Positions 1-19,115 of a stretch of 55,831 nt of DNA are shown piece by piece. The DNA is taken from positions 1 to 55,831 of the forward strand of contig JAQGDQ010002420.1 of the NCBI GenBank assembly GCA_030141605.1, written 5' to 3'. The first letter of the stretch is position 1, and each line of letters begins with the position of its first letter. The DNA is from Tubiluchus corallicola. Lineage: Eukaryota > Animalia > Priapulida. A program made the translations under genes and the position numbers. A model generated the notes under the pieces. It was not told the origin of the DNA and searched no databases. It saw only the letters and a program-made list of their open reading frames with translations.

Positions 1-1325
1 TGCAGTGTCGCTGTACATATTCAACACCAGCTTGTGTATTTCCGGCCAATTTTCGGTAAAGGCAAATGAAGCATAAGAGTAAAGGTCAAGAGTGTTGTAA
101 TAAGGGTATTCAGGACACTCAAGTATGGCAAAATACTCGAAATTGGTGCCTATCTCATATCCCCAAAATGTGTTGGACGTAAATAGAAACATCTCGTTAA
201 ACAGCGCAGAATGCACCGCATAGTTATCCACCTCTTTCCTACACTCGTCTTGCCAAGTTTCTATCCTTTTCAGCCATAGGTCTTTATTCTTTATCGTCTC
301 AAACAGTATCGATTTTGCGCCTTTAAAGCTCTCCACATACTTCCTGTGGTATCTTCTTCCATGTCCAAACTGAACCACCGGCAGATCCCAGACCAGCACA
401 AAGTTTAGTTTGCGAGTTTCACCCGGTTTTAGAATCACTTTGGAAGCCACAGCCCCACCCGGAATGCTGTTAAATCCATCGGCAAAACCGCAAGACATCT
501 TCCAGTCCTTTGCAGCATCAGGCGATAACACCCCGTCATCCTTAAACATCTCCCAGGCAATATCCCTATCGTAGACATCAAACGTACTGAGGTGCGATGT
601 AGTAACTCCCTCTTCCTTGAGAGCACTTATGGCAAATGTACCCCTGAATGGAGCAGACTTGTCGATCTGATCATTTGACATCAAAAAAACGGTATCTTCA
701 GATGAAGATTTCTCCGCCCTATTGTGGCTATCACAAGATATGGGAGCGTGAGGAGTGCCTCTGTTGTTGTCATCAAAGAAGCCGTTCATATTGGTAAAGC
801 TCAGCATTATGGAACATTCTGCATCCCTTTCCCCCTATTAGTGAGCGAATATTCAAAAACAGCAGTGGGCAAACTGCTCGCCTTATAATCACCCTTTATC
901 ACAGGAGAGTATTGTTTGCATTCAATGAGAACCGGGATACCGTCGAAATATTCATAAGCGGTGTTTGCAACGGGATACAGTGCATTGTATGTGCCCTTAA
1001 CATGATGGACATTATCATACCTTGACATATCAAACTTATCGCAAACATCCGGCTTTTCACTGTTTAGGGCTGATGCAAACTTTTTGTCGCCATATTTTAA
1101 GTTCACACAAAAGGAATTTGCAGGAATAGTAAAAGTTTTCACCAATCCGGGCTTTATGGTATATGAGCTAAAGTGCCCTTTATAGTCCCTATATATAGCT
1201 CCGGTTCCCATGGTACCAAGAGGTACTCCGGACACCACACCTTTGCCGTACAGCCTTTCATATTTTGGCTTTGTTTGTATCTTGTGATTTTCTCCTATCT
1301 TGTAAGAAACGTATGATCTGCTCAC
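1..1325 (-). CDS. GH116 family beta-glycosidase (non-lysosomal glucosylceramidase-like); runs off the left edge; apparent frameshift near 825
   Basis: N-terminal SGVPLGTMGTGAI..G and ALYP..YSPV..DYKASSLP motifs in ORF 807-1364. A shift in the GGGGG-AAA-GGG run continues as ..FVLVWDLP..LFNE..ILECPEYPYYNTLDLYSYAS (GH116 nucleophile region). Probable GTG start at 1325. Confidence 0.85.
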
Positions 1326-1349
1326 CAAAAAGCCCCCGATTTTATAGAT

Positions 1350-1387
1350 AAAAAGAAGCGGCACCGGATATCTGCATCAGGTGCCGC
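1350..1387 (-). terminator. Intrinsic terminator-like hairpin after TRAP dctP
   Basis: GCGGCACC/GGTGCCGC stem (1358-1365 / 1380-1387) followed on the minus strand by TTCTTTTT. Confidence 0.7.
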
Positions 1388-1399
1388 CATGAAACGCAA

Positions 1400-2440
1400 C
1401 TAATCAAGCTCTATGGCATAAGCCTTGTCGAGCTCCTTTTCACATTTGTCTATCACGTTGACAAACTTGTTGTACCAGCCCTGGTTCTCTTTGGACTTGT
1501 TCAAAAACCAATCCGCCATGCCCTTAGAAGCATCGACAAACATCTTCTTCTCTTCAGGACTTGGAGAGTACACAACGCCTCCCTTCTTCCTGAAAGCCTC
1601 ATACGACAGGCTGTCATGATATTTTGGGTAAGCATAGAGATACTGCTGCAACACCTGAAATCCTTCTGCGACGATCCTCTGATATTCTTTAGGCATGCTC
1701 CTGAGCTTCTGTTCGCTCATCATCCAAACTCCACTCATGTATGAGTGTTGATCCAGGATAATATATTTTAGGTGATCGTGAAGGTTCATAACCACGATGT
1801 CTGTTATGCCATTCTTTGTACCTTCTGCAACTCCGGTACCGAGAGATGTATAAACTTCTGGCCATGACACGCCCGTGGGAGTTGCCCCTAACTGTCTGGT
1901 CAACTCTTGCTGGAGAGGTGCGGGTATGGTTCTGATCTTGAGACCTTTCAAGTCTGACGGAGCTTTTACCTGCTTCTTTGTGGTGGCAAAGTTTCTCCAA
2001 CCTCCGGAATTGGTTATGGTCATTATTCGAACATTCGGCAAGCTCGTCTTCATACCAACCCTGAGGTCTTTTACAAAGTCGTGCTGTTCATAAACACATT
2101 CCGCCACATCATCATTTTTGAACATGTAAGGCAGGTCTAAAACCTCAATGGGGCTCCAAAACAGCGCCGCCTCACCGGCTGTGGTTTGAAATATGTCATA
2201 AACACCACTTTGAACCCCTTCCAAACATTCCCTTGCACTGCTGCAAAGCTGAGCGCCGATAAAAGCCTTGACGGTTATATTCCCATTACTGGCGTTCTCA
2301 ACGTAGTTTTTGAAAGCCATCATACCTATGTAGTTGTAATTATCCTTGCCAGTAACGCTGGGCCACACAAGGGTATAGGTCTTGGCATACGCACTCGCAG
2401 AAAACAGAACCGCAAGTAAAACTAATAATATCCTCTTCAT
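1400..2440 (-). CDS. dctP: TRAP substrate-binding protein (DctP family), HpsK-like organosulfonate clade
   Basis: Signal peptide ending ASAYA; DLKGLKIR motif; FKNYVE.ASNG, FIG.QLCS...ECL, GGWRNFA and KNGITDI segments that I recall from roseobacter HpsK. Confidence 0.9.
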   Translation of the reverse strand: MKRILLVLLAVLFSASAYAKTYTLVWPSVTGKDNYNYIGMMAFKNYVENASNGNITVKAFIGAQLCSSARECLEGVQSGVYDIFQTTAGEAALFWSPIEVLDLPYMFKNDDVAECVYEQHDFVKDLRVGMKTSLPNVRIMTITNSGGWRNFATTKKQVKAPSDLKGLKIRTIPAPLQQELTRQLGATPTGVSWPEVYTSLGTGVAEGTKNGITDIVVMNLHDHLKYIILDQHSYMSGVWMMSEQKLRSMPKEYQRIVAEGFQVLQQYLYAYPKYHDSLSYEAFRKKGGVVYSPSPEEKKMFVDASKGMADWFLNKSKENQGWYNKFVNVIDKCEKELDKAYAIELD

Positions 2441-2487
2441 AAATCCTCCTTAACTTATATTAACAAACTTGTCATCCGGCTTTAAAA

Positions 2488-3774
2488 TTATCTAAAAAGC
2501 AAATTTGGCAAAAACAGCACCAGTCCAGGTATAAATGTAATTAAAAATACAACAAATATCTCCACAGCAATGAACGGCAGGATAAATTTTGATATGGTCA
2601 TCACCTTTGAACCGCTAACGGATGATGCCACAAATAGTACTAGCCCCATAGGCGGAGTAGCAAGGCCTATGGTGACATTCACGCACATAACTATAGCAAA
2701 ATGAACTGGGTCAACCCCAAGATCCATCATAATAGGCTGCAAAATCGGTCCAAGTATCAATATTGCAGGGCCCGCATCCAAAAACATCCCTATGAAGAAC
2801 AAAAATATATTCACAAGAAACAGTATGAGATAGGTGTTGGAATTTGCCCCTATTACTTTTTCTGCTATTATGCTCGGCGTTTCAGAGTAGCTCACCACAA
2901 ATGAAAACGCTTGGGCTGCCGCAACGAGCAGCAGTATTGCACTGGCTTGAATCGCAGCTCGTTTAAATATTGGCCCTAAGTCCTTCACGTTTAGGGTACG
3001 TTTCACGATCAAGCCCACCAGGAGCGCATACGCAACAGCAACGGCGGCAGCTTCAGTAGGGGTAAACCAACCGCTCAGTATCCCTCCTAGTAATATCACA
3101 GGTGTCATGAGCGGCCAAAAAGCTATCTGTAAGCTCCTACCTCTCTCTTTCCAGCTGCATTTTTCATTTGCCGGGGCAAAGTTATACTTCTTCGACATAA
3201 AATATGTCACCGTCATCAAAGCCCCGCCCATGAGCAGACCTGGCAAAAGCCCTGCGGCAAACATTTCGCCCAAATTCACATTCATAACGAACGAATATAA
3301 CACCATCAGACCGCTAGGAGGTATGATGGGCCCGATAACGGACGAAGCCGCCGTAACCGCTGCGGCAAAGGATTTTGAATAACCGTTCCTCTCCATGGCG
3401 GGGATAAGCATGGAGCCTATGGCGGAAGTATCCGCAACGGCGGAACCGCTAAGACCTGCAAAAAGGATAGATGAGGCAATATTCACCTGGGCCAAACCAC
3501 CTCGGAAATGCCCTATCATGGATTTGGAAAAATCAACCAATGCCTTTGTCGTGCCTCCGTGGTTCATCACCTCTCCGGCGAGGATGAAGAACGGCAACGC
3601 CATTATGGGAAACGAATTAATACCGCCAAATATTCTACCCATTAGCCCCTTGAGCAGCATCGGCTCCGTGACCTGCAAGTAAATGCCTGAAGCCAAAAGC
3701 ATCCCGAAAAATACCGGTACACTCAAGATTAAAGCGACAATGAATATCCAAAAATATATAGTTGCGATCATCAT
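2488..3774 (-). CDS. dctM: TRAP large permease DctM
   Basis: ALPFFILAG, GLSGSAVAD, GPIIPPS, DPVHF, TPPMG motifs; about 12 hydrophobic segments. Confidence 0.95.
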   Translation of the reverse strand: MMIATIYFWIFIVALILSVPVFFGMLLASGIYLQVTEPMLLKGLMGRIFGGINSFPIMALPFFILAGEVMNHGGTTKALVDFSKSMIGHFRGGLAQVNIASSILFAGLSGSAVADTSAIGSMLIPAMERNGYSKSFAAAVTAASSVIGPIIPPSGLMVLYSFVMNVNLGEMFAAGLLPGLLMGGALMTVTYFMSKKYNFAPANEKCSWKERGRSLQIAFWPLMTPVILLGGILSGWFTPTEAAAVAVAYALLVGLIVKRTLNVKDLGPIFKRAAIQASAILLLVAAAQAFSFVVSYSETPSIIAEKVIGANSNTYLILFLVNIFLFFIGMFLDAGPAILILGPILQPIMMDLGVDPVHFAIVMCVNVTIGLATPPMGLVLFVASSVSGSKVMTISKFILPFIAVEIFVVFLITFIPGLVLFLPNLLFR

Positions 3775-3839
3775 TCCTCCTCAAGAAAAAGTCCGGCCAA
3801 ACAAAACCAGAAAACAACACCTATTGCGCCACAGGAGCG

Positions 3840-4541
3840 TCATATCTTAACATCGCTATGGTCTTCCAACTCTACTTCCGCTTCATGAAAAGACTCTTGG
3901 ATATTCAGCATACGGTGATAATTTTTGCCGTTCATCAACTCCATGATAAACATCAAACCCTTCTGCATTGATGCAACAAGCATCGATGCAATACCTATGG
4001 GTAGAGCAACATATATCCAGATAAGCTTAAAGCCCATGGAGCCGGAAGTTGAGTAAAAGCCGTTCTTGACAAAAATAAGACTGAGATGGAGCATCCCCAT
4101 TAAGACGACCAGCTCAATTATAAACACGAGCCCACTCAAAGCCGCCCTACCCCTCAACGGCAACTTCTCCATGATAATATCTATATTCACCAAAAGGCTA
4201 TGCTTGTAGGCGTAAGGCGCCACGAGAAAACACATCCACACCATCATATAAAGCGCCAATTCTTCTCCCCAGCTAGGGGCTACAAAAAACTTACGCATAA
4301 ACACCTGATAAAATATGGTGGCAGTCATAATGAACAGGGAAGAGATTGCCAAAATAAGGAATATTTTGAACACAAAGTTGGTAATGCGGTCAAGTCCAAA
4401 AAGAATCTTCTCCAGCACAAATTCCGCCCGCTTAGGCACAAGAGCCAACGACACCAGCGACACCGCAGTAAAGAGTATTATGAACAATATAAACACCTTC
4501 CACTCAGCGGATATATCTTTCAGAAAGCCAAACCAAGTCAT
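3840..4541 (-). CDS. dctQ: TRAP small permease DctQ (with an extra N-terminal TM segment)
   Basis: QVFMRKFF..PSWGEEL..Y..VW motif; adjacent to dctM; ATGA overlap with the upstream gene. Confidence 0.9.
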   Translation of the reverse strand: MTWFGFLKDISAEWKVFILFIILFTAVSLVSLALVPKRAEFVLEKILFGLDRITNFVFKIFLILAISSLFIMTATIFYQVFMRKFFVAPSWGEELALYMMVWMCFLVAPYAYKHSLLVNIDIIMEKLPLRGRAALSGLVFIIELVVLMGMLHLSLIFVKNGFYSTSGSMGFKLIWIYVALPIGIASMLVASMQKGLMFIMELMNGKNYHRMLNIQESFHEAEVELEDHSDVKI

Positions 4542-5413
4542 AATACCTCCAACAGGCTTTTTATGTCCGTGACGATAAGGCCGGAGTTTCTCAAAGACTC
4601 AATAAATTTCTCATCAGAAAACATCTCGTACTCCATCCTTCTTAAAAATGCATTATGCGGGGCAATGTGATACATATCCGCACAAGTATCCGGATGTATC
4701 GACAAGAAATGTATTCCCCTGGGCAAGTTCGTATACATTTTGTAGTAAAAATCCCTGACATCCGCACCATCCTCGAGATGACCGGGCGTCATTACAAAGC
4801 TATCGAATTTCAACGGGAGCTTAGATCCATAAATCTTAAACATCTCCTCATAAGCAGAAGCCTCTACTCCCGTGGGGTAGAAGAACTCCGCAAATGAAGC
4901 AGAATCCCGTACAAGCACGGGCAATACCTCGTACTCCTCACAAACACTCATGAACGCTTCCACAACATTCGGGAGCATAGCTGCACCCATGTGCGCATCA
5001 GCGTGACTCAGCCTGATACCATCCGCAAGCGCTCTGTCAAACTGAGCTCTAATCTCCGATTTGGCGTCACTTGGGGTGACATTGTTCAAAACTTGCAGGT
5101 TTTTCGAATGAAGATACCCAGAAGCATCAGTCAGTGACTTGCCATTTGTAAGACCTCTCCATCGATAGCTCTTCCACTCACTTGTAAGGGTTATGTGGAT
5201 ACCCACATCAACTTCAGCATCAAGCCGCCTGTAAAACTCCAAAACTCGGATAATACGGACATACTACCATGACAGATCCACAAGAAACGGTACCCTTTGT
5301 GCTCATAAGCAGGAGAATTCATTTGAACCATGACTCATCCCCAAATCATCCACATGAGGAACCACAACGACAGAACGCTCAAGCATATCTTTAGATACAG
5401 GCACGTCAATCAC
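4538..5413 (-). CDS. ChbG/YdjC-family carbohydrate deacetylase (two apparent frameshifts near 5248 and 5318)
   Basis: HVDDLGMSHGSN at the N-terminus (read by hand from 5413), then GIHITLTSEW, SHADAHM and HP metal-binding motifs; GTGA overlap with the nagB-like stop. Confidence 0.8.
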
Positions 5414-6264
5414 CTCAAAACAGGCTCGGGCATATCGAGTACACCTCTAGTAACGCCAACACTAACATCACAATGTCTCTGTACCAGTGAAGCGGGAAAA
5501 GCCCCGGTAATATCGCCGAATAGCATCCTACGCAATGCAGCACAATGCCAATCTCTGTTCATAAATATTCTGATCTTTTCAGCGCTCAAAATCTCCTTCA
5601 TCCCCACAGTAATGGCAAACTTAGGCATCCTCAAAGTATTGCCCCTTGCAGCAGTAACGGAGTTGATAGTGATGCTCATCTCACGGAGTTGGACAATTCT
5701 AGTCTCGAGCGATGCAAAAAGATCAGGATCCTCATAACCTTCCAAGGGGTCGTTAAAAGCCAAATGTCCCGTTATTCCAACACCTGCATATGTGACGTCC
5801 ACGCCATGTTCTTTGATAATATCAGTATATTCGTTGATATCGTCAGGTTTTGGAAAATAACATTCCGGTCTCCTATGCGTCTCCAGCTTGTTAATGAGAT
5901 GCTCATCGATGTGGCTGCGGAAGCTCAATGGGTCTTCTCTCGGTATCCACTTGCAGGATGGTGTCAAATACTCATCCATACCGAGCAGGATAAGACCGCT
6001 GAGGTCTATATTATCCTTGATCGCCTTTTCAGCCATTATGTCGTACTGCCCAACAGGCCCTACAGGAACTATAAACACAGCCCTTTTCTTCCCTTTGGAC
6101 ATGATAGTTGAGTAATCTTCAAGCATCTTTTCAGCGATGCTATTTATCATCTCTTCATTCTTCTCAAAAACTTCCACGGGGAAGGGGGAGCATCTGACAA
6201 CCTCTTCCCCGGTCATGCCAAGAGCCTTTTCGCTCAGAGAGCTCAACCCATAGTAAAAACTCAT
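5410..6264 (-). CDS. Glucosamine-6-phosphate deaminase (NagB)-like protein, PVGPVGQY variant
   Basis: MDEY catalytic Asp motif, GVGITGHLAFNDP, AITVGMKEIL and FPASL.QRH motifs. Confidence 0.85.
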   Translation of the reverse strand: MSFYYGLSSLSEKALGMTGEEVVRCSPFPVEVFEKNEEMINSIAEKMLEDYSTIMSKGKKRAVFIVPVGPVGQYDIMAEKAIKDNIDLSGLILLGMDEYLTPSCKWIPREDPLSFRSHIDEHLINKLETHRRPECYFPKPDDINEYTDIIKEHGVDVTYAGVGITGHLAFNDPLEGYEDPDLFASLETRIVQLREMSITINSVTAARGNTLRMPKFAITVGMKEILSAEKIRIFMNRDWHCAALRRMLFGDITGAFPASLVQRHCDVSVGVTRGVLDMPEPVLR

Positions 6265-6273
6265 AAATACCCC

Positions 6274-8490
6274 TTACCTGACAAACAGGACGTCACCCTT
6301 CACAAGAACGTCCGCCTTTCCATAAACTTTGTAGGAGACTTTCCCCGTTTTAAAAGCTATTTCCGCATGAGCATCAAAGACGGTCACTTTAATATCTTCA
6401 TCCTCATAGTTTTTATTGGGCACGCCGTAAATGCCGACAAAATCTAAAGTGCCGGTTGAGGCAAACTCTCCGGTATGTTGAACCTTCGGGGCAAACTTTA
6501 TCACCGCCCCATCTGCCACAAATACGGGCGCTCTATCCAGTTCGTACACAGAATCTACGACAACCCCTCCCCTGACAGATTCTCCAGTAAAGAAGTTGTA
6601 GAATGTGCCTTCGGGCAGCATATAGTTCGCACGCCCGCCCTCGGCTATTATCGGAGCACAAAAGATATCGTCCCCGAGCATATATTGGTACTCATAGCTC
6701 CAGAGTTCTTTATTGTTCGGATAAGCTAAAGGCATTGCCCGCACAATGGGGATCCCGTAGGCATTAGCTTGTTTGCCAGCATTCATTATGTATGGAATGA
6801 GGGAGTATCTATAGCCCAACCATTCCCTGGCAATCCTAATCCCTTCGTCGCCAAAGATCCAAGGCTCTCTATCCCCGATACCGTGAAATCTGGTATGGGA
6901 TGCGAGTATTCCGGCCTGCATATAACGCACAAATATCTCTAGGTTTGGCTGCTCTCCATAAAACCCTCCGATGTCGTAGGAATAGTACGCAGCGCCACAA
7001 AGACCCCAAGACAGATTGCCCATAATAGCCCCTCCCAGACCACCAAAGCTTGTCTGAGAGTCTGCCGACCACTGAGCTCCATACTTTTGGGAACCGGTCC
7101 AACCGCTCCTGCCCCACAGGACTGCATTGCCTGCCCCCATCTTTTCTTCTAAAGCTTCGAAGCAAGCTCTGTTATAAATCAGACCCAAGGCATTGTGATA
7201 GTATCTACCGCTGTCGCCATTTAGAGCTATCATGTCAGCTTCCACCTGTTCGCCAAAGTCAGGCTTGAGACAGGAAACACCCATATCGACCATCTTGTGT
7301 ATCTCTTCCTTCCACCACTTTACCATCTCAGGGTTTGTAAAATCATATATGCCGCTCTCGGGCAAAGGAGTCAAAACCTCCCCAAAAGGAGCCATATCCC
7401 ACTCAAACTTCGAAGGTGAACCGTCACTATTTTTTAGCAGAAAATCTTTGTCCGCAAGCTCAGAAAAACGCTCGTGATCAACGGATAAGTTTGGATACAG
7501 CCAGCAGTTGACATGAAAATTCAGGTCTTTCAAGTCTTTAGTAGATTTTTCGGGATCGTCAAACCGTTTTTTGTCCCATTCAAAGATAAATCTAGTGTCA
7601 GTATCCTGCCAAGCCCTGCCGTCGTAAGAGATAACATCTGCAGGCAGTTTTTTATCACGAAAAGTTTTCGCAGCCTCATAAGCGTCATCAGGGGTTGCAT
7701 AATATGCTTTTGATATCCAAGCCCCGTAAGACCAAAGCGGCAATATCGGGGGACGACCCGTAAGCTCAGTATATTTATACAGCATGGAAGCAGGTGTCGC
7801 AGCTCCAAATAGGAACAGGTCAAAAACCTCATCCTCCGTTTCAAGAATGTAAGATATGTGAGACAACGGAGCATATCCTATCGCATGCTTCGTGTCAGCA
7901 GTGGTGTGAAGATATATGCCCCAGCCCTTTGGGCTCCAAGCAAATGGAGTGTTTTTGTAAGTCTCCTCGTGATTGACACCCAAGGAATCTTCGTTTCTGT
8001 TCAGTATCAGCGCGCCGCGATGATTTAGTGCCTCGTGCTTTTCGCCTAAACCGTAAACCTTCTCCCCCAAAGGCAAGTCGAAACTGAACGTAAAACCGTT
8101 TGAAGTCGCAGCAATCGGAGGAAATTTAAACCTTTTGGTAAAGTAACTATCTGAAGAAGGAGAGAGCAGGACAGAACTGCCCATCAGCAGACTAACGCGC
8201 AGAGGAGACTTCTCCAATCGCAAAGTGTAACCTCCAGCTTTGACGTCGTAGCCCTCTTCATTGATGACGACCTCCAAACTCGCACGCTCATACTTCTCTA
8301 TTATCCCGTACTCATTCCTGTTCGCAGAATTGTTTATGGAAAATCTGAAAACACCACAACCATTAGAGGTCACCACAGCAGAACCAGCACTCGTCTGAAA
8401 ACTAAAACAATCATGAAATATCTTGGCGTCAGTAATCTCATCAATAGGAGCAACCTTATCAACATCAACCAAAAGTCTATTCATCTTCAT
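6274..8490 (-). CDS. GH31 alpha-glycosidase (YicI-like)
   Basis: YGLGE, YKNTPF, LTGRP..P.W, KPDFGE nucleophile, WSAD acid/base, DIGGF, RFHG..REPW motifs. Confidence 0.92.
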   Translation of the reverse strand: MKMNRLLVDVDKVAPIDEITDAKIFHDCFSFQTSAGSAVVTSNGCGVFRFSINNSANRNEYGIIEKYERASLEVVINEEGYDVKAGGYTLRLEKSPLRVSLLMGSSVLLSPSSDSYFTKRFKFPPIAATSNGFTFSFDLPLGEKVYGLGEKHEALNHRGALILNRNEDSLGVNHEETYKNTPFAWSPKGWGIYLHTTADTKHAIGYAPLSHISYILETEDEVFDLFLFGAATPASMLYKYTELTGRPPILPLWSYGAWISKAYYATPDDAYEAAKTFRDKKLPADVISYDGRAWQDTDTRFIFEWDKKRFDDPEKSTKDLKDLNFHVNCWLYPNLSVDHERFSELADKDFLLKNSDGSPSKFEWDMAPFGEVLTPLPESGIYDFTNPEMVKWWKEEIHKMVDMGVSCLKPDFGEQVEADMIALNGDSGRYYHNALGLIYNRACFEALEEKMGAGNAVLWGRSGWTGSQKYGAQWSADSQTSFGGLGGAIMGNLSWGLCGAAYYSYDIGGFYGEQPNLEIFVRYMQAGILASHTRFHGIGDREPWIFGDEGIRIAREWLGYRYSLIPYIMNAGKQANAYGIPIVRAMPLAYPNNKELWSYEYQYMLGDDIFCAPIIAEGGRANYMLPEGTFYNFFTGESVRGGVVVDSVYELDRAPVFVADGAVIKFAPKVQHTGEFASTGTLDFVGIYGVPNKNYEDEDIKVTVFDAHAEIAFKTGKVSYKVYGKADVLVKGDVLFVR

Positions 8491-8654
8491 AGCTCATTGC
8501 CTCCAAAAAGCCACAGGGCAGAATATAAAAAAACCACCATACGCGCGATATTACGAAAAATCGCACAAAACACCACACCCGACCGAGCGGTAATAAAATA
8601 CGCAAAAACACACATCGACAAGCACCACTCAAAGCTTGCACGTCAAATTAAAGT

Positions 8655-8737
8655 CTTCCTCCCCCGCAAGCGAAAAATGCCTATTTTTTTATGTTGATGC
8701 ACCATTCTGGAATGCCTTCCTCCCCCGCAAGCGAAAA
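8655..8737. repeat. 22-nt exact direct repeat, two copies, 39-nt spacer
   Basis: CTTCCTCCCCCGCAAGCGAAAA at 8655-8676 and 8716-8737. Confidence 0.9.
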
Positions 8738-8852
8738 CGACCACTCTTAGCCACCATCCCCATGCAAAACAGATGCTCCCTCACACACAAGCAAAAAATA
8801 ACAAACAACTATATATAATAACCAATTCAGAACATTTTTATAATAACAAATA

Positions 8853-8881
8853 CTTATAGTTCATAAATGTAATATTGTCAA
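8853..8881 (-). promoter_or_regulatory. sigma70 promoter for the GH31-nagB-chbG-TRAP-GH116 operon
   Basis: Minus strand TTGACA (8881-8876), 17 nt, TATAAG (8858-8853). Confidence 0.65.
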
Positions 8882-8987
8882 CATATTTCTACCATATTTG
8901 TTGTTTTTCTAACAAAGGCAAGGTTTGGGCTCAAATCTTCTATCAAGGTTTGGCGTAGGAAATTAAATACATCGCATTCGGCTTTAA

Positions 8988-9767
8988 TTATCTGATCTGT
9001 CTGGAACCGTTCTTCGTGGCAACTATGAGTTTTACACCACTGCCTATCATTTTATCCAACAGCCGCTTTGGGGGTTCTTTATCCGTGATTACGGTATCCA
9101 TATCTTCTATATTTGCCAACGCAACGTTGGCTTTTGTGTTGTACATTTCACTCTTCAACAACAGGAGTTTGTGCCTTGACATACTCATCATCTTTTGTGC
9201 CACATCCACTTCACCTCTATTGTAGTCTAGTATTATGCCATCTTCACCGATAGCACCTCCGGAAAAAACCACATAGTCCGCCACAAAAGAACCTACATAC
9301 CTGATAGCTTCATACCCCGTTATGCCGGAATTGGATGTATTAACCCTGCCAGGGACCACCGTGATCCCAACATTCTCCTTCATAGATAACATGCTTGCCA
9401 CATTCAGACTGTTGGTAACAACCTCGTAGCACTTATCGACCCTTGACGCAAAAGCCTCAACAGTGGTGCCTATAGTGACAAAGATCATAGAGTGTTCCGG
9501 GATGCAGTTTAGTGCGGCCTCTGCAATCCATTGCTTCTCCATGGCTTGCAATGCATATCTTGTCTGAAAATTGACATTCTTGACACTAGACAGCGCCAAC
9601 ACCCCGCCATGATACTTCGTCACAAGATTTTGGTTCACCATCTCCGCAATATCTCGCCTGATGGTCTGAGCACTCACCTTAAACTCTTCCGAAAGCCACT
9701 CCACACCGCAATAACCGTGCTTCTGTACTATTTCAAGTATTTCTTTATGTCTAGCATTCTTGTACAT
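8988..9767 (-). CDS. csqR: DeoR/GlpR-family regulator, CsqR (YihW)-like
   Basis: HTH VSAQTIRRDI; SSVKNVNF, IFVTIGTTVE, NSGITG, ADY..SGGAI resemble E. coli YihW as I recall it; divergent from yihU. Confidence 0.75.
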   Translation of the reverse strand: MYKNARHKEILEIVQKHGYCGVEWLSEEFKVSAQTIRRDIAEMVNQNLVTKYHGGVLALSSVKNVNFQTRYALQAMEKQWIAEAALNCIPEHSMIFVTIGTTVEAFASRVDKCYEVVTNSLNVASMLSMKENVGITVVPGRVNTSNSGITGYEAIRYVGSFVADYVVFSGGAIGEDGIILDYNRGEVDVAQKMMSMSRHKLLLLKSEMYNTKANVALANIEDMDTVITDKEPPKRLLDKMIGSGVKLIVATKNGSRQIR

Positions 9768-9832
9768 ATCCTAAATACTATACCTATTCCTTTCGCAAAT
9801 ATCAACAATTTACAACAAAAATAATCATAAAC

Positions 9833-9861
9833 TTGACATAAAATGTAATATTATGTACAAA
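9833..9861 (+). promoter_or_regulatory. Candidate sigma70 promoter of the yihU operon, overlapping a repeated motif
   Basis: TTGACA 9833-9838, 17 nt, TACAAA (imperfect -10); contains AAATGTAATATT, also present at 8865-8876. Confidence 0.5.
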
Positions 9862-10036
9862 GATAGCATGTTGTGAATTATATTTTTACAATGGCAGCGA
9901 TAATTTGCTCCGTGTAATCCACAGAAATACCGGAAGCAGTGCCATCTGAGTTGTCTATGCACAAGGCTGCATAGCTACTGTGAGCATTTTTTCTCACTCG
10001 TATGCTCGCTGCTAGAAATATCTAGGAGGATATTGT

Positions 10037-10927
10037 ATGAAGACAGGTTTTGTAGGTCTTGGAATAATGGGTTATCCCATGGTTATGAACCTTATTAATG
10101 GCGGTATTGATGTAAAAGTGTTTGATATAGATAAGGAAAAATTAAATAGCATTGTAAAAAATGGTGGAAAAGAGGCAAAAAGCCCGAAAGATGCCGCCAG
10201 CGATGTGGATATTGTAATCACTATGTTGCCAAATGGAGCCATCGTCAGGGATGCGGTGTTTGGTTCTGACGGCATTGCTAAAGGGTTGAAGCCTGACACT
10301 CTTTTTATCGACATGTCAACTGTTCACCCTTTGGAATCGGATGCTTTGCGCAAGGATCTAAATGCACTGGGCTTTCAGATGATGGACGCACCTGTGGGCA
10401 GAACTTCTGAACACGCAATTCAGGGAACTCTCTTAATACTTGCGGGGGGCACATCAGAACAGATAAAGAAAGCACAGCCCCTGTTTGACCTCATGGGGAG
10501 CGATACCGTCAACATGGGCGGAGAAGGAAAAGGGATAAGGATAAAGATCATCAACAATCTGATGAGCATCGCCCTAAACGGCTTATCTGCGGAAGTAATG
10601 GCGCTGTCTGAAAAGCTCGGATTGAAGTTTGACGATGTTATGTCCGTTTTTTCTGGAACTCCTGCGGGGAAAGGACACTTTACTACCACATGGCCCCAGA
10701 GGGTATTGAAGGATGATTTATCGCCTCTGTTTATGTTGGGGCTTGCACACAAAGACCTTGGGATTGCAATAGATGTTGGAGCAAAGCTGAATGTACCGCT
10801 ACCCATGTCAGCTTCTGCTCTCCAGGCGTACTCTACTGCCATGGCAAACGGCAGAGGGACTGAAGATTGGAGCGCAATGTTTGAAGATGCTAAAGTGAAT
10901 TGTGGATTAAAGCCCAAAAAGGGTTGA
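10037..10927 (+). CDS. yihU: 3-sulfolactaldehyde reductase (beta-hydroxyacid dehydrogenase family)
   Basis: GLGIMG Rossmann motif; DAPVGRTS carrying the Gly-Arg-Thr sulfonate pocket; KIINNLMSIALN; GKGHFTTTWP..VL..DLSP.FM..LAHKDLGIA closely matching recalled E. coli YihU; AGGAGG RBS. Confidence 0.9.
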   Translation: MKTGFVGLGIMGYPMVMNLINGGIDVKVFDIDKEKLNSIVKNGGKEAKSPKDAASDVDIVITMLPNGAIVRDAVFGSDGIAKGLKPDTLFIDMSTVHPLESDALRKDLNALGFQMMDAPVGRTSEHAIQGTLLILAGGTSEQIKKAQPLFDLMGSDTVNMGGEGKGIRIKIINNLMSIALNGLSAEVMALSEKLGLKFDDVMSVFSGTPAGKGHFTTTWPQRVLKDDLSPLFMLGLAHKDLGIAIDVGAKLNVPLPMSASALQAYSTAMANGRGTEDWSAMFEDAKVNCGLKPKKG

Positions 10928-10961
10928 CGTATTTTAATGGCAAGATCTACGGAGTTGCAAG

Positions 10962-12032
10962 ATGGGAAATTCGATAAAGGTGCACAAACGCAAAGATTGT
11001 GAAGACATTCATGAGATAAATCTTTTCTTACAGGGGATCGATATTTCTGTGCTCAACTACGGTTGCACGCTCAACAAACTACTTACCCTTGACCGGAACG
11101 GACACTTTGGGGATATTGTGCTGGGTTTTGACGATCCTTATCGGTATACGGAAGCTCACCCTTTTTTCGGATCTATAGCTGGCAGATTTGCAAACAGGAT
11201 TAAGAACGGAACATTCTATCTCGAAGGCAAGAAATACACCTTAGCTACAAACGAAATATCGACAGGAAGTCACCTCCATGGAGGTGTCAGGGGATTCGAT
11301 AAATATCGTTGGGATTACGATGTTTCGAGCGGCAAAGACTGTGAAGAGGTAATTTTCTACAGGCAGTCTGAAGACGGTGAGGAAGGCTACCCCGGGAAAC
11401 TACTTATAACCCACACAATAAGAATAACATCGAGCAATGAATTATTCTTCATATTTGAGGCGGAAGCCGAAGAGACCACCATATGCAACTTGGTCAATCA
11501 TAGCTATTACAATCTATCCGGTGGGTCTTCCGGCAACGTATTCAACCACAACATAGAGGTGTACGGAGATAATTATCAAAGAGTGGATTCCTCTTGCATT
11601 CCCAACGGAGAACTCGGATTTACCAAAGATATATTCAAAAATAGCGGCAATATTGGCGAAGCCATCGCTACCCATTATGACCCAAGCTTGGGTGTCCCTG
11701 GGGCTATAGACTACAACTTTATCTTAAACTCGGAAAGCGAGCACGGCTTAAGAAGAGCTGCACTGGTATCTGAGCCCTCTTCAGGAAGAATAATGGAAGT
11801 CAGCACAAACTTGGAGGGTGTACAGATTTATAACGGTTTTAAACTCGGGATAAAGAGGTGGATCGGAAAAGGCGGCACCACATATTCTTCATTTGGTGGC
11901 TTGTGCCTTGAAACGCAGCATTTTCCAAACTGTATCAATACCGAAGATGATGCACACCAATGCATCATAGACAAGGGCGAAAGGGCGAAGTATATCACCA
12001 GACACAAGTTTCTTTGCGATATTGGTGCTTAA
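10962..12032 (+). CDS. galM: Aldose 1-epimerase (mutarotase), likely sulfoquinovose mutarotase by context
   Basis: GRFANRI, HLHGG, GEEGYPG, NLVNHSYYNL, GLCLETQHFPN. Confidence 0.88.
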   Translation: MGNSIKVHKRKDCEDIHEINLFLQGIDISVLNYGCTLNKLLTLDRNGHFGDIVLGFDDPYRYTEAHPFFGSIAGRFANRIKNGTFYLEGKKYTLATNEISTGSHLHGGVRGFDKYRWDYDVSSGKDCEEVIFYRQSEDGEEGYPGKLLITHTIRITSSNELFFIFEAEAEETTICNLVNHSYYNLSGGSSGNVFNHNIEVYGDNYQRVDSSCIPNGELGFTKDIFKNSGNIGEAIATHYDPSLGVPGAIDYNFILNSESEHGLRRAALVSEPSSGRIMEVSTNLEGVQIYNGFKLGIKRWIGKGGTTYSSFGGLCLETQHFPNCINTEDDAHQCIIDKGERAKYITRHKFLCDIGA

Positions 12033-12072
12033 AGGATGCTTTGGCCAACTTTTTTAATGAGAGGCGTAGTCA

Positions 12073-12856
12073 ATGTTAGATGAAATATCCATTTTGACTG
12101 TATTTGCATTGTGCATAATTATAATGTTTGGTGGATTTGTTCAAGGTCTTACGGGCTTTGGATTGGCTTTGGTGAGTGTCCCCCTACTGTCTTTAGTTGT
12201 GGATGCCAAGATGGCGATCCCCCTGGCGGGCATATACGGTTGGCTTGTTACACTACCTATTGTTTACAAGATGAGGGGGTCGGTCGTATACCCTATCGGC
12301 ATTGCTATGTTTGTCTGTTCTATTCCCGGAGCATGGTTGGGGGTTGATCTGCTTATCATACTGCCGGAATGGGCAATTTTAGCCGCTATGGGCTCAGTGC
12401 TGATATTTGTCAGCCTATATTCTATACTCAAACACGGCACCAGCGGCGTTACGTTCAAAAACAGAATGTCAGAATACGGTTTTGGCGGCGCAGCCGGTTT
12501 CTTAGGGGGCGTGCTCGGAAGTGCTGTTGGAGAACCGGGACCACCCGTAATCGCTTATACATCTTTTCAGAAATGGACTGGAGATCAGATAAAGTCCACC
12601 TTGGCATTTTACTTCATGCTGCAGATGATGATAACTTTGAGCGCATATTACTATAAAGGGATATTCACAAGTGAAGTCACTTGTGGGTCGTGCCGCATAC
12701 ATGATGCCGACATTTATCATAGGCGCATGCGCAGGCATGTGGAGCTACGCGCATATGAAGAAAAACAACATCAATTTTCATAAAATAGTCCACATTTTAC
12801 TAATATTTATAAGCATAGGCATACTTTTTAAATCATACTCAAAGTTTGCGGCTTAA
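12073..12856 (+). CDS. TauE/SafE (TSUP) exporter, probable sulfonate (DHPS) exporter; frameshift near 12678
   Basis: GFVQGLTGFG..L..VP and G..GPP repeats; ORF 12073-12783 joins hydrophobic ORF 12671-12856. Confidence 0.82.
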
Positions 12857-12881
12857 TTTTTTTTAAAGGGAGAAATTGACC

Positions 12882-13836
12882 ATGGATAAGCTTAGTGCAT
12901 TAAAACAACACACAGTAGTAGTCGCAGATACCGGCGACTTTGAATTAATAGCAAAATACAGCCCAGAAGACGGAACAACAAACCCTACATTGATCTACAA
13001 CGCTTCGCAATTGCCCCAATATGCTCACCTTGTGGAGAAAGCTGTCAGCATAGGAAAGAAGAGCTCCCTTTCGGGAGAAAAGCTCCTGGACTACGTCAAT
13101 GACAGGCTTGCAATACTTTTTGGTCTTGAGATATTGAATATCGTGCCGGGAAGGGTCTCAACAGAAGTTGATGCCACCCTGTCTTTCAATAGAGACGGCA
13201 CCATTGACAAGGCAAAGCAGATTATAGACCTATACAAAGAGGCAGGCGTGGATAAAGAAAGGGTGTTGATAAAGATAGCAGCCACATGGGAAGGTATAAA
13301 AGCTGCTGAACAGTTGCAGAAGGAAGGCATAGACTGCAATCTCACATTGATTTTTCACAAAATACAAGCTGTCGCGTGCGCTCAAGCTGGCGCATATCTC
13401 ATATCCCCCTTCGTAAATAGGGTTCTCAATTATTTTGAAAACTTGGGGCAGACGTTTGATGATCCCGCAAAACACCCCGGCGTGGTCTATGTGAAGGAGA
13501 TACACAACTACTATAAGAAGTTTGATCACAAAACCATAGTCATGGCAGCCTCTTTGAGGAAAGTTACAGAAGTGTCAGAGCTTGCCGGTCTTGACAGGAT
13601 GACCATACCTGTTCCTTGGAAGAGCTGCAGAATACTGAAGGCAATATGGACAGGTCATTGAGTGTTGCAGCGGCAAGGCGTCGGATGAAGAGAAGATTGA
13701 CGCTAATGAAAATAGATTCCGCTGGGATATAAATTCATGTCCTATGACATGCGACAAGCTAAGTGATGGTATAAGACTATTTGCCAAGGATTTAAGCGCT
13801 CTAAAGGGCTTCATGGCAAAGAAACTCGAGATGTAG
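12882..13836 (+). CDS. tal: Transaldolase, TalA/TalB type (two apparent frameshifts near 13613 and 13675)
   Basis: VVADTGD, TTNP, STEVD, LIKIAATWEG (Schiff-base Lys), CNLTL, ISPFV, MAASLR; shifted C-terminus FRWDIN..M.CDKLSDGIRLFAKD ending at TAG 13834-13836. Confidence 0.9.
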
Positions 13837-13850
13837 GGGTTGATATAGAG

Positions 13851-15187
13851 ATGAATAAACCAAGAATTGTGTTGTTTGCCTTAGGCAGACCTTTATTTGA
13901 TGTTGAATTTGCGGAAGCACAGGTTCGCAAAGCGTTGGAAAATTTGCAAAACTTACCCATCGAGATCGTCCAAAAAGAGGGAATTTTATTTGACGAAGCA
14001 GAAGTCGATATCGCCATCAACGAGATGGAGGACAGAGACAACATCGATGCAGTCCTCATATTGCAAGCGACATTTTCGGATGCCAGCATAACGAAGAAGA
14101 TAGCGAGCATGATCGATGCTCCGATAATACTCTGGTCATTCCCGGAACCAAGACTTGAGGACGATTGAAGACCAACAGTTTTTGCGGCGTAAATCTGGCC
14201 TGTCACGTGCTGAGCAGAGAAGGAAAAAAATACTTCTTTGTCCACGGAGATGGCAGTGACAGCTCCATACCACCGGAAATTAATGGAATAGTCAGAGGGT
14301 CTTATTCCGTCAAAAAGGTAAAAGGCGGAAAGATTTTAGCTGTGGGCGATTTTCCTGGAGGGTTTGACAGTTGTGACTATAGCGCCGAAGAGCTGGCAGA
14401 AATATTTAATATCGAGATAGTCCCCAGGGATATTGGGGGATTTTTGTCCGACGTTGCGAAGGTGCCGAATGATGACGCGAGTAGGTTTTTTAATAAAATC
14501 AAGCCCATGTACGAAAACTTGGAAGAGCACGATTTTGAAACAACTCTAAAAACTTTGAAGGTATATCTTCATACAAAGCAGATGGTGGAAAGGGAAGGTT
14601 TTTTGGGTATTGCCATGAGGTGTTGGCCGGAATTCTTCACAGAATTTGGGGCGTCAGCCTGTGGAGCTTATTCATTTTTGGGGGAAGATCTCATTCCAGC
14701 AGGTTGTGAAAGGGATGTTTTTGGAGTTCTTACGAGTCTGACCTTGCAAAATATAGGAAATGACAAGGTATTTAATACAGACATCGTGGAGGTCTCATAC
14801 ACTGACGATTCTGCAGTCTTGTGGCACTGCGGCCAAGCTCCCATATCCATGGCAAAAGAGGATAAGATAAGGGCAACACTTCACAGCAACAGGAAAAAAC
14901 CACTACTAAACGAATTCACCCTAAAGCCGGGCTACATCACCATAGCAAGGCTAAGCAGAGGAAATAACAGGTTGAAAATGATCTTAACGGGAGGCGAGAT
15001 ACTTGACCGCCCATTGCCATTCTCTGGGACCTCTGGAGTTGTGAGATTTGATAAACCGTGCAAGACGACGATAGAGTTTCTCCTGAATGAGGGGTTAGAA
15101 CATCACGTGTCGATAGTGTATGGAGATCACAAAAATGGTGTGAAAACATTTGCAAAGCTGATGGACATAGATTTGCTGGAGATATAG
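13851..15187 (+). CDS. L-fucose/L-arabinose isomerase-family protein, SqvD/SftI-like sulfoquinovose isomerase candidate; frameshift near 14158
   Basis: QATFSDA..WSFPEPR(G)GRLKTNSFCGVNL across the junction; RCWPEFF, CERD, WHCG, EHH motifs. Confidence 0.78.
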
Positions 15188-15243
15188 CCCTTTTGCTTCT
15201 CCATTTACAGTTTTTGGGGAATGTCTTTGAAAAATATCTGGAA

Positions 15244-15334
15244 TAGTCCGCAAAGATTGTAGGCTTGTTTATACATGTCTTGCGGACTACGCCCCCGGTT
15301 TGACATCGGTGCTGGGTCGTTCGTTCTTTTTTTT
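15244..15334 (+). terminator. Hairpin(s) and T-run ending the yihU operon
   Basis: TAGTCCGCAA/TTGCGGACTA inverted repeat (15244-15289), then a weaker hairpin and T8 ending at 15334. Confidence 0.5.
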
Positions 15335-15428
15335 GATTGTGTAATGCTTATGAATTGATATATAATCTTAGACTGGTGGTCTGTCCTTCAATGGTCTTTC
15401 GGATAAATAAATATGCGTAGGTGATGTT

Positions 15429-16475
15429 ATGTTTTTTTCACGAGGCAAAAAAGATAAAACCTCAGGCAATGCCAGCAAAGTTTTCAAGAGCTTTAACTAC
15501 TTTCTTCACGACGATACGACAGCTGCTGTGAGAGAATTAAAGGACATTGCGGCAAACAGCAGCAGTGAGCATCTGGATACATACCTAACCCTCGGAACTA
15601 TTCTGCGAAAAAAAGGGGACTTTCTCAGGGCCATACAGATACATGAAAGTTTGCTGAGCAGAAATACGGCGAATAGAGATGAGATCACCCCGGTTATAGA
15701 AGAGCTTATCGCTTCCTACGTCAGCGTTGGAAGTGCACAAAAGGCGATACACTACATACACATGCTCGCACATGAGCACAATACCGAGAAATACCTAAAG
15801 TTGTTGGCTTCCCTCCACATGCAACAGGAAGATTTTGATCATGCCACAAAATATCTTGGGAAACTATACAAACAGAATGAAGCAAAGTACGGCAAAATCT
15901 TGAGTTATTGTTACGTATTAAAAGCGATGAAGAATGAACACACGATACAAAAAGACCTCTATGCGGCGTTAAAGTATTATCCGAACAACCATAAGGGGCT
16001 ATTCCTCCTTGCAGAGGAATATCAGAAGACAGGAAAGAAGAGCAAACTGTTCCAGACACTGGAAACTATACTGAAAAATGAGCTCGTATATTCTGCGTCC
16101 GATATGGATTACATCTACGAGATGTACACTATTCACAATAAACAGGATGAACTTTACCAGCTTGTCAGCGAACTAAATTCAAAAGAGGAGGTCAAAAATC
16201 CTTTTTACGCCGTATGGCTGGCAGAATATTACAATGAAAAAAATACAGAGGAGAGCCGTGTCAAAAGCCTGTCCACACTAAAAGATTTCATAACCCATAA
16301 AAAAGTATCGACCATTGTGGCAAAAAAATATGGGGAACTTTCCATGGACGATGTTTTGGTCAAATATGCGGAGAAAAAAGCTCCTTATATCTGTGCAAAG
16401 TGTGGCGCAACATACGCTCTGTACGCTTTTCAGTGCGCAAGTTGTAAAGACTATGAGGTCATAGCTCCACATTAA
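15429..16475 (+). CDS. lapB: LapB/YciM-like TPR protein with C-terminal rubredoxin-like CxxC..CxxC
   Basis: YLTLG.ILRKKGDF.RAI.IH TPR; YICAKCG...FQCASC. Confidence 0.7.
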   Translation: MFFSRGKKDKTSGNASKVFKSFNYFLHDDTTAAVRELKDIAANSSSEHLDTYLTLGTILRKKGDFLRAIQIHESLLSRNTANRDEITPVIEELIASYVSVGSAQKAIHYIHMLAHEHNTEKYLKLLASLHMQQEDFDHATKYLGKLYKQNEAKYGKILSYCYVLKAMKNEHTIQKDLYAALKYYPNNHKGLFLLAEEYQKTGKKSKLFQTLETILKNELVYSASDMDYIYEMYTIHNKQDELYQLVSELNSKEEVKNPFYAVWLAEYYNEKNTEESRVKSLSTLKDFITHKKVSTIVAKKYGELSMDDVLVKYAEKKAPYICAKCGATYALYAFQCASCKDYEVIAPH

Positions 16476-16563: not shown

Positions 16564-19115
16564 GTGTTGAAAAAAATCACCCCTATGATGCAACAATTTT
16601 TTGACATAAAGAAAGATTATCCTGACAGCATACTCTTCTTTCGCATGGGGGATTTTTATGAAATGTTTGGTGATGACGCCGTTATTGCATCCAAAATCTT
16701 GAATATTGCCCTCACCAGCCGCAATAAATCAAATGACACGGAACCGATGTGCGGCATACCGTACCACTCCTACAAATCATACCTCATTAAACTGTTGAAA
16801 GAGGGACAAAAAGTTGCCATATGCGAACAGCTGGAAAACCCAGCTGATGCCAAGGGGCTGGTAAAAAGGGGCGTCACGAGGGTCGTCACACCCTCTACTG
16901 CCATTGAGGAGGAGTTTGGCGATACGACAGAGAACAACTTCTTGATGTCTGCATATCACGATAACGGCACATTTTACATATGCTGCGCCGATGCATCCAC
17001 AGGAGACATCTATCTTCAGGAAGCAAAAGGCATTGACAAACTACAAAATATTGCAGAGCAGCTGCACATAAAGGAAGCCGCCTCCAACATAAATCTGGAC
17101 TTCTTCCCGAGCTCCATGTTGCGTATAATTAAAACCCAAGCGATCAACACGGCGTTAAGGGTTGTCTTAAATAGACTGCAAAGTACATCCATAAGGTCTC
17201 TGGGCATAGATAACGAAGGATATGTACATGCTCTTTTTCAAGTGTTTGAATACCTTGATGAAATAATGCTTGATGCGGAGTTTAAGCGCCCTGTGCTTAT
17301 CAATCCTACGGATCGCCTCGTCATAGACAGCGTTGCTGCCAGCAAATTAGAGCTTGTGACAAATAGTGACTTAGGCACCAACAACACTCTGTTTTCTGTG
17401 TTAAATTTTTGTAAAACGGGCATGGGGAGCAGACTTCTAAGGCGAAATATCCTCTACCCCCTACAGGATGCAAAAAAGATCAACAAACGATTGGATATAG
17501 TAGAAGCCCTGATAAGACACAAGAACGTGCTGCCGGAAATATCTAACATTTTGAAGAATATCCACGATATAGACAGAATTTTTGTCAGGATCAATACCAA
17601 TCGCAGCAACCCGAGGGATTTAGTTTGGCTCAAAAATTCCTTGCACAGCCTGCCTATGTTGCAGAAAATACTTGTGAATCTGGAAGAAGGGCTCCTGTCG
17701 GAGCTCACCACAAAATTTTCCAAAAGTTCACAGATTTACGAGCTTCTGGAGCAAAGCATATGCGACGAACCATCCTTAAATTTGAAGGAAGGCAATATCG
17801 TAAAGCTGGGTTATAACGCCACCGTGGATGAGCTGCGCGACATAAAGGATAATAGCCATAAAATCCTAAAGGAGATGGAGACGGACGAAAGAGAGAGCAG
17901 TGGAATAAATAACTTGCGCATAAACTACAACAAGGTGTTCGGCTACTATATAGAGGTCTCAAAGTCGAACCTTTCCAAGGTTCCGAAACATTATGAGCGG
18001 AAACAAACCTGGTAAATAACGAACGTTTCGTAACAGAAAAGTTGAAAGAGCTGGAGAGTAAAATTTTAGATGCCGAAGAGAGGCTCTATGGTGTAGAGTA
18101 CGAAATTTTTTGCAAGGTGCGGGAAGAGTTGCTCACCTTTGGCTCTCTGATCAGAGAGCTTTCTGAAAAGACGGCAGAAATAGATTTCTTTGTATCCTTG
18201 GCAAACGCGGCGTTGAAGTATAGGTACGTCCGCCCCATCGTTGATGATGATAACAAAATAAGCATCATGAAGGGACGACATCCGGTTGTAGAACACTCTG
18301 TCGAGGGGGATTTCGTATCGAATGATATCTATATGGATACGGAAGATGCTAGGCTTTTGGTTATCACAGGGCCGAACATGTCCGGCAAAAGCACATACAT
18401 ACGGATGACGGCGACGCTGGTTGTTATGAGTCATATCGGTTCGTACATTCCGGCAGATTATGCTAAAATAGGAGTTGTGGATAGGGTTTTTGCAAGGATA
18501 GGGGCTGGAGATAATCTATCCAGAGGAGAATCCACATTCATGGTTGAGATGGTTGAGGTGGCAAATATCCTGAATAATGCCACAAAAAAATCTCTGCTCA
18601 TAATGGACGAAATAGGACGGGGTACCTCTACTTATGATGGAATATCCATAGCTTTTGCGGTGTCTGAATACGTCTTGTGCAGCTTAAAGTCCAAGACTAT
18701 GTTGGCAACTCACTACCATGAGCTGACGGATCTCGTGACGGGTATTCACGGAGCTAAAAATTTGACGATCCAAGTAAAGGAGCACAACGGCAGCATAGCA
18801 TTCACAAGAAAGATAACCGAAGGAAGTGCCGATAAAAGTTATGGTATATACGTCGCCCAGCTTGCGGGGTTGCCAAAAGAGATTATAGAGAGAGCAAACG
18901 AGATATTGCATCATTTAGAATTAAATAACAGTAACAATGCCCAAAATACCAGAGTGGTGCCAAAAGAGAGAATAGTGGAACATGTACTCGTGTTTGAAGA
19001 TAGTGAAGCTGTGGAAAAGCTGAAAAACCTGGATATCAACAGCCTAACCCCCATTGAAGCGCTAAATGTTTTAAGCGAGCTAAAAGTTGTAGCAGAGAAG
19101 GAATGTGCGTCATGA
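16564..19115 (+). CDS. mutS: DNA mismatch repair protein MutS (apparent frameshift near 18010)
   Basis: TPMMQQ, FFRMGDFYE, PMCGIP; GPNMSGKST Walker A, MDEIGRGT, ATHYHEL, SYG; junction KQT(L)VNNER needs one extra base. Confidence 0.95.

Follow-up and report, generated by a model that had tools for sequence, protein, structure and literature searches.

A NagB-like deaminase and a deacetylase in sulfoquinovose clusters: a possible entry route for an amino-sulfosugar

Introduction

Sulfosugar catabolism has so far meant sulfoquinovose (SQ) and, since 2025, sulfofucose. The window analysed here, the whole 55,831-nucleotide stretch of contig JAQGDQ010002420.1 (Tubiluchus corallicola assembly GCA_030141605.1), carries a sulfosugar cluster in which a NagB-like deaminase gene is followed by a YdjC-family deacetylase gene. 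What might such a pair do there? An earlier note on this DNA proposed that it admits an amino-sulfosugar, which would be a third substrate class. Sulfoquinovosamine itself presumably occurs in the N-glycans of Haloarcula hispanica and in a Halococcus wall.

The cluster in the window

The minus-strand genes run in the order GH31 (6274..8490), NagB-like deaminase (5410..6264), YdjC deacetylase (4538..5413), dctQ (3840..4541, TRAP small permease), dctM (2488..3774, large permease), dctP (1400..2440, binding protein) and GH116 (1..1364). Beyond the GH31 gene lies a gene for a DeoR/GlpR (CsqR-like) regulator (8988..9767, minus strand), then a divergent plus-strand run encoding the sulfolactaldehyde reductase YihU (10037..10927), an aldose 1-epimerase (YihR-like mutarotase, 10962..12032), a TauE-type exporter (12073..12856, end approximate), a TalB-type transaldolase predicted to act on sulfofructose (12876..13836, end approximate) and an SftI/SqvD-like SQ isomerase (13851..15187).

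This is an SQ cluster, since YihU passes its curated model (397 bits, cut-off 348) and the GH31 protein has the residues of SqgH sulfoquinovosidases. Isomerase, transaldolase, reductase and TauE together make up the sulfo-TAL set, as laid out in part of PMC7491151, albeit with a transaldolase of TalB size and an isomerase under its model cut-off. The sole family match of the isomerase is NF048012, at 211 + 48 bits against a cut-off of 700; SftI-like matches overall score 211 to 309 bits, and a search for a solved structure of an SftI-like protein found none. The TalB-size transaldolase (12876-13836) within an SQ cluster is unlike the TalC-type SftT.

The GH116 gene, a candidate β-glycosidase of the module, is cut by the end of the window, and the analysis covers the genes on this side of that end. 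It is read in two frames, and its frame break near 810-830 is absent from the short-read contig differences listed. GH116 also occurs in sulfo or pair loci of deaminase-bearing genomes (window 1-1364; L001, L006, L014, L187) and is a candidate β-sulfoglycosidase. A promoter scan gave a signal no better than chance.

The claim that kinase, PTS and sulfatase genes are missing near the pair held for the 16 open reading frames scanned in 1-16475; two FGGY kinases, at 26039 and 47713, lie in other operons of the window.

The deacetylase gene and assembly errors

As the earlier note had read them, overlapping codons chain the genes on the minus strand (GTGA at 5410-5413 between deaminase and YdjC, ATGA at 4538-4541). 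In the window the YdjC gene is broken by two in-frame stops, with one piece in another frame. Relative to the window, a short-read contig that covers 3960-7892 carries an extra base at each of 5240, 5246 and 5313, and with X placed at the three indel sites the gene stays open over 292 aa (profile score 265 against 218 bits); translation could equally well begin at an ATG ten codons after the GTG. As the frame is whole in the short-read contig, the break stems from the assembly; the read run may be from the window's own sample and thus speaks to assembly error, not to an independent strain. A pseudogene is ruled out by this repair and by the 292-aa read-through. The same run also repairs the genes for TauE (259 aa read through), the transaldolase (321 aa) and the isomerase (445 aa), so the window carries indel errors. 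Both mutS and ftsK (16564-19115 and 37332-40099) are split over two frames, probably by further assembly indels.

The YdjC fragment matches PF04794 at 96 bits (cut-off 29.7). Its metal-binding motifs (HxDD, His, HxDxH) are kept in the read-through, as in 34 relatives. The ChbG equivalog PRK02134 (cut-off 227 bits) gives 34 bits for the fragment and 61 for an intact relative. We predict that the enzyme is an N-acetyl-sulfoquinovosamine deacetylase.

A NagB fold with an altered phosphate site

The deaminase has 284 aa. The reading of its motifs proved correct in the translated frame: the catalytic MDEY (96-99) and GHLAFNDP (166-173) are kept, and the loop VPVGPVGQY (66-74) no longer has the hydroxyl residues of the usual LxTGxTP. 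An AlphaFold model (pLDDT 94) has the NagB fold, the top Foldseek and VIA rows all being NagB (Z 28.3, rmsd 2.1 over 231), at 20-25% identity. The protein falls outside NagB proper and scores 80.7 bits with TIGR00502 (cut-off 236.9). It belongs to an unnamed NagB-like family (2454 matches) whose relatives are labelled glucosamine-6-phosphate deaminase in source databases, and the Atlas holds only unnamed glucosamine-6-phosphate isomerase family clusters for it.

For the comparison of residues we take Asp72, His143 and Glu148 as the catalytic residues, and Thr41, Gly43, Thr44, Arg172 and Lys208 as the phosphate ligands, in E. coli NagB numbering. Asp97, His167 and Asp172 match Asp72, His143 and Glu148, with Thr165 at the position of Asp141; the catalytic Asp and His are invariant in the deaminase subfamily. 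The phosphate ligands correspond to Val68, Pro70, Val71, Val203 and His240, as mapped by sequence alignment to 7LQM and three canonical rows (L143, L144, L146) rather than by coordinate overlay. At the Lys208 position 66 of 73 subfamily rows have Gln, where the window protein has His240. Loss of both basic phosphate ligands, judged from the aligned residues, supports and strengthens the earlier reading, which had pointed to the loop. Gained is an Arg237-x-Trp239 motif, with Arg237 in 73/73 subfamily rows; Arg237 is predicted to bind the sulfonate.

Neither motif proves sulfonate binding, since PVGP is family-wide and Arg-x-Trp recurs in gut Clostridia loci that have PGI, PFK, FBA and TIM paralogues and an SQ marker in 0/19 cases. 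The caveat that PVGP occurs outside sulfo loci was thus well placed: the motif extends to a nucleoside locus on a Vibrio plasmid and to G842, and was dropped as a sulfonate signature.

Other members of the family have their own surroundings. PVGP NagB-like genes, possibly for amino-pentose deaminases, lie in nucleoside catabolism loci (L162:9001-16227, L227); the Vibrio plasmid locus holds nucleoside hydrolase, adenosine deaminase, ribokinase and NupC. A Haloarcula plasmid (L161:10124-25006) has two PVGP NagB-like genes with an aldolase, a Gfo protein and an ABC transporter. A variant of the deaminase that has no Arg237 stands beside a fructokinase-like gene (L036:9941-11874) and is possibly a phosphate-free glucosamine deaminase.

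Recurrence of the pair with SQ genes

Relatives were surveyed in the best 80 of 275 genome loci, the best 80 of at least 590 metagenome loci and two plasmid loci. In the subfamily with the N-R-x-W motif an SQ marker was present in 20 of 72 loci, 19 of which also have a YdjC or NagA deacetylase; the locus DNA examined held no marker in the other 52. The other motif groups gave 0/19, 0/16 and 0/54, with marker queries that were derived from the N-R-x-W group and that missed, in two control-group loci (L094, L101), a transketolase and RpiB resembling sulfo-TK. As kin loci are not independent, we place weight on the different pathway types rather than on the count. Both control-group loci have an amidohydrolase with a PVGP deaminase, and no SQ isomerase was found in the locus DNA examined; L094 has two PVGP deaminases, an Fe-ADH, TauE and a Gfo protein with part of the sulfonate triad.

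The 15 closest loci of the best-80 set all come from marine Alphaproteobacteria; 13 of them have YdjC behind the deaminase, and 10 have SQ genes within 10 kb. The SQ genes encode a PfkB kinase, a LacD-type aldolase, an SftI-like isomerase, a GH188 sulfoquinovosidase, ComC and SuyAB. The aldolase is closest to 8TNF, which we take to be the Paracoccus sulfohexulose-phosphate aldolase. GH188 matches 8QC2, 8QC3 and 8ZN9 at E 1e-104 or better (8QC entries are named in a part of PMC10755693). Four loci keep the window order of deaminase, YdjC, dctQ, dctM and dctP, and in the tree their DctPs group with that of the window; a single DctP ligand clade was rejected, as eight other pair-linked DctPs fall outside this group. 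A MauG-like di-haem peroxidase and a Sel1-repeat gene lie upstream of the deaminase in seven loci (L001, L003, L007, L009, L010, L013, L014); the Sel1-repeat gene also recurs in SQ clusters that have no pair.

In Clostridia (L065, L071, L078) deaminase and NagA lie inside clusters with a true YihQ (890 and 759 bits, cut-off 553), an SftI-like isomerase and a split transketolase. Two of the three (L071, L078) also have RpiB and SauS-like genes, and SucCD-like genes were scanned in L071; this gene set is the sulfo-TK variant known from portions of PMC12890257. A further locus (L058) has SuyAB, PFK and NagA. Host clusters of the pair are of transaldolase, EMP and transketolase type, routes that all pass through sulfofructose (PMC12890257, in part). 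Co-occurrence with sulfo genes, which the earlier note had expected for yihU/sqvD, stood for SftI/SqvD-like, GH188, YihQ and SuyAB genes across several phyla and pathway types and failed for YihU, found beside no related locus.

An SftI-like gene is present in 14/15 of the closest genomes versus 32/401 sampled Rhodobacteraceae. In the ABC-linked group, where many genomes are incomplete, 15 of 39 have an SftI-like match and 24 have none, a result that counts against the amino-sulfosugar reading, as do the 52 subfamily loci with no SQ marker. Five Falsiroseomonas genomes of the latter kind have GH188 in 0/5, SuyB in 5/5 and a LacD-type aldolase in 4/5. In two cases that aldolase adjoins a PfkB kinase with no isomerase, as it does in Paracoccus wurundjeri, whose kinase-aldolase pair is not induced by sulfofucose (from part of PMC12421959).

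A gut Clostridia/Collinsella cluster (L059, L063, L064, L067, L068, L070, L074, L075, L083-L086) encodes a PVGP deaminase, NagA, divergent PGI, PFK, class II aldolase, TIM and an SsuABC-like transporter, in some cases with a LarA-like epimerase. A reading of its aldolase as SqiA found no support, true FBP aldolases ranking first.

An add-on module

The deaminase and deacetylase pair is an add-on module that travels as a unit and is dispensable for SQ itself, because the 20 SQ clusters inspected from genomes that have no deaminase also have no deacetylase. In 401 Rhodobacteraceae genomes the deaminase occurs in 3, all already known from the first scan, and the SftI-like gene in 32, which include the 3. 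YdjC and GH116 were each found in 0/20 of the SftI clusters inspected, drawn from the 29 of deaminase-free Rhodobacteraceae genomes. Among 401 Hyphomicrobiales genomes there were five deaminase matches, one of them new and strong (G614), in a genome with the YdjC module and an SQ cluster elsewhere.

Rhodobacteraceae and relatives (L166-L185, L189, L190) also have a conserved cluster of DeoR, TRAP, PfkB, LacD-type aldolase, SftI-like, GH188, mutarotase and SlcC-like genes. It looks like a hybrid sulfo-EMP route; reviews tie roseobacters mainly to sulfo-SMO.

Glycosidases

The GH31 protein of the window is YicI-like rather than YihQ-like. The SQ-binding residues of Alteromonas SqgH (AmSqgH) are R302, T377, K412 and F513 (given in a part of PMC12780224). 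The window protein has R300, T374, K409 and F510, with spacing 74/35/101 versus 75/35/101, a match by spacing rather than by alignment to AmSqgH; these residues are conserved in 117-121 of 121 rows. Since they match SqgH, a new sulfoquinovosidase lineage was discarded, as was a module-specific role, the gene also occurring in SQ clusters that have no pair. In the 401 Hyphomicrobiales genomes GH31 had 13 matches, 11 at ≥ 42% identity; all ten inspected of these 11 lie directly behind an SftI-like gene, and the two weak matches do not. There an SqgH-type GH31 stands in for GH188 (window 6274-8490; L187, L215-L223). SqgH is reported only with sulfo-SDO in Gammaproteobacteria in the relevant part of PMC12780224.

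Six loci of the sister group (L062, L065, L069, L071, L076, L078) encode, after the deaminase, a Gfo protein whose best matches are GH188 structures; the window has no such gene. These SqgA paralogues keep Lys107, Arg166, Leu170, Lys172, Glu189 and His193, with Leu in place of Tyr136 (numbering set by exact spacing) and no GDHHG histidine motif. In SqgA the triad Arg166/Leu170/Lys172 contacts the 6-sulfonate and Tyr136 the C2-OH (PMC10755693, in part). Since a normal YihQ is also encoded in three of the six loci, the likely target of the paralogue is a sulfonate sugar with a change at C2. Going by these residues, SqgA paralogues are candidate glycosidases for N-acetyl-sulfoquinovosaminides. 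A comparison of NagA motifs gave no clear signal.

Proposed route and its alternatives

Four unrelated deacetylase families occur next to the deaminase (YdjC, NagA, PIG-L in L066 and a polysaccharide deacetylase in L060), which points to an N-acyl amino sugar. Recurrence with SQ genes supports the amino-sulfosugar reading of the earlier note. We consider it probable that the pair feeds N-acetyl-sulfoquinovosamine, via sulfoquinovosamine and 6-sulfofructose, into sulfoglycolysis, a substrate and reactions that we infer. Gluco stereochemistry is assumed; the manno epimer would give the same ketose.

In the proposed route, the TRAP system would import the amino-sulfosugar and GH116, elsewhere the SqgA paralogues, would free it from glycosides. 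Deacetylation of N-acetyl-sulfoquinovosamine would fall to the metal-dependent YdjC enzyme, and the NagB-fold enzyme, our predicted sulfoquinovosamine deaminase-isomerase, would deaminate and isomerise the product to 6-sulfofructose plus ammonia. His167 and Asp172 would open the ring and Asp97 would enolise, after which ammonia would leave and 6-sulfofructose would form. NagB chemistry is established; its extension to sulfoquinovosamine is our proposal. Sulfofructose would enter the SQ route below the isomerase, transaldolase would convert it to sulfolactaldehyde and F6P, YihU would reduce sulfolactaldehyde to DHPS and TauE would export DHPS. No kinase would be needed, because the C6 sulfonate takes the place of the 6-phosphate.

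The substrate might instead be another N-acyl amino-sulfosugar, such as a galacto epimer giving sulfotagatose, a sugar carrying some other acyl group, or a conjugate substituted on its nitrogen. This would suit the LacD (tagatose) type of the alphaproteobacterial aldolase, the several amidase families that partner the deaminase, and the kinase and aldolase of Falsiroseomonas and Paracoccus that come with no SQ isomerase. We regard it as unlikely, given that the transaldolase of the window and the transketolase of L065, L071 and L078 require the fructose configuration (textbook knowledge) and that YdjC and NagA are acetyl-specific families.

GlcNAc-6-sulfate, a sulfate ester, could be turned into fructose-6-sulfate with no desulfation and passed on by promiscuous SQ enzymes. 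It is an abundant natural sugar derived from sulfated glycans (textbook knowledge), and as a monoanion would also suit a pocket that has no phosphate ligands. For the ABC-linked group this reading stays in play, as three of its loci have a sulfatase close to the pair (L022, L030 and, less clearly, L226); in at least 69 of 72 loci there is no sulfatase match. The neighbours of the pair are enzymes of C-S sulfonates (YihU, YihQ, GH188, SuyAB, ComC, SauS-like), and SuyAB or SauS would be unable to process a sulfate ester product. A sulfonate is also favoured because SqgA paralogues keep the sulfonate triad and have Tyr136 changed, which makes the ester rather improbable.

Little credence can be given to a phosphate-free route for plain GlcNAc, in which GlcNAc would go to GlcN and fructose and then to a fructokinase, the SQ neighbourhood being shared housing. 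Every phosphate ligand is lost from the deaminase, the L036 variant adjoins a fructokinase-like gene, and the closest solved YdjC relative is 8JQE, which we take to be CmCBDA. CmCBDA deacetylates free GlcNAc (shown in a part of PMC8619855). However, the window cluster has no kinase, the route would not explain why SQ clusters of three kinds have each taken up the pair, and it is the L036 variant that has no Arg237, which fits a role of that residue in anion binding. That an ordinary GlcNAc-6-phosphate recycling pair sits here by chance is very improbable: NagB plus deacetylase is a common pair and relatives are annotated as glucosamine-6-phosphate deaminase, yet the NagB model score is far under its cut-off, the phosphate ligands are gone and the SQ context is conserved.

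We see about an even chance that a catabolic branch for N-acetyl-sulfoquinovosamine is widespread, reaching marine Alphaproteobacteria, Betaproteobacteria, Clostridia, Spirochaetes and this organism, and that it has a deaminase subfamily of its own, deacetylases that can replace one another, and specialised glycosidases (Tyr136-to-Leu SqgA paralogues, GH116). If so, amino-sulfosugars would be a hidden, common source of carbon, nitrogen and sulfur in sea, soil and gut. The large unnamed NagB-like family would gain a first function, a NagB would read sulfonate in place of phosphate, and the genes would serve as markers for asking where amino-sulfosugars are made.

Comparison with known systems

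A full-text literature search, covering mostly papers outside subscription, found no amino-sulfosugar catabolic route and no mention of the proposed substrate; the main texts of two reviews and an ISME J paper, all from 2026, contain neither 'glucosamine' nor 'deacetyl'. The proposed route would work like NagA/NagB grafted onto sulfoglycolysis, and is likely new as far as found.

Like NagA/NagB (E. coli NagB 1DEA, B. subtilis NagB 2BKV), it would use a deacetylase and then a deaminase-isomerase of the same fold (Z 28), with Asp72 and His143 kept and Glu148 as Asp. In contrast, identity is 20-25%, Thr41, Gly43, Thr44, Arg172 and Lys208 are replaced in the window protein, the window deacetylase is of YdjC type, and the pair is housed in SQ clusters with no kinase or PTS. 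With ChbG/YdjC deacetylases (8JQE, 2E67) the window protein shares PF04794 and the HxDD, His and HxDxH metal motifs; it differs in falling far under the ChbG model and in its predicted substrate, a sulfonated monosaccharide.

With the sulfo-TAL pathway (sulfo-SFT) described for Bacillus aryabhattai and Clostridia in part of PMC7491151, the window shares an SLA reductase, a TauE exporter and a GH31 sulfoquinovosidase, and its transaldolase and SftI-like isomerase are candidates for the two remaining enzymes. The window differs in its extra deacetylase and deaminase, TRAP importer and GH116, in a TalB-size transaldolase rather than a TalC-type SftT, and in a GH31 of SqgH rather than YihQ type. 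The sulfofucose pathway of Paracoccus wurundjeri (PMC12421959, in part) likewise brings a rarer sulfosugar through its own entry enzymes into sulfolactaldehyde metabolism. However, that route is Entner-Doudoroff-like and oxidative, whereas the route proposed for the window would strip off an acetyl and an amino group and join at sulfofructose.
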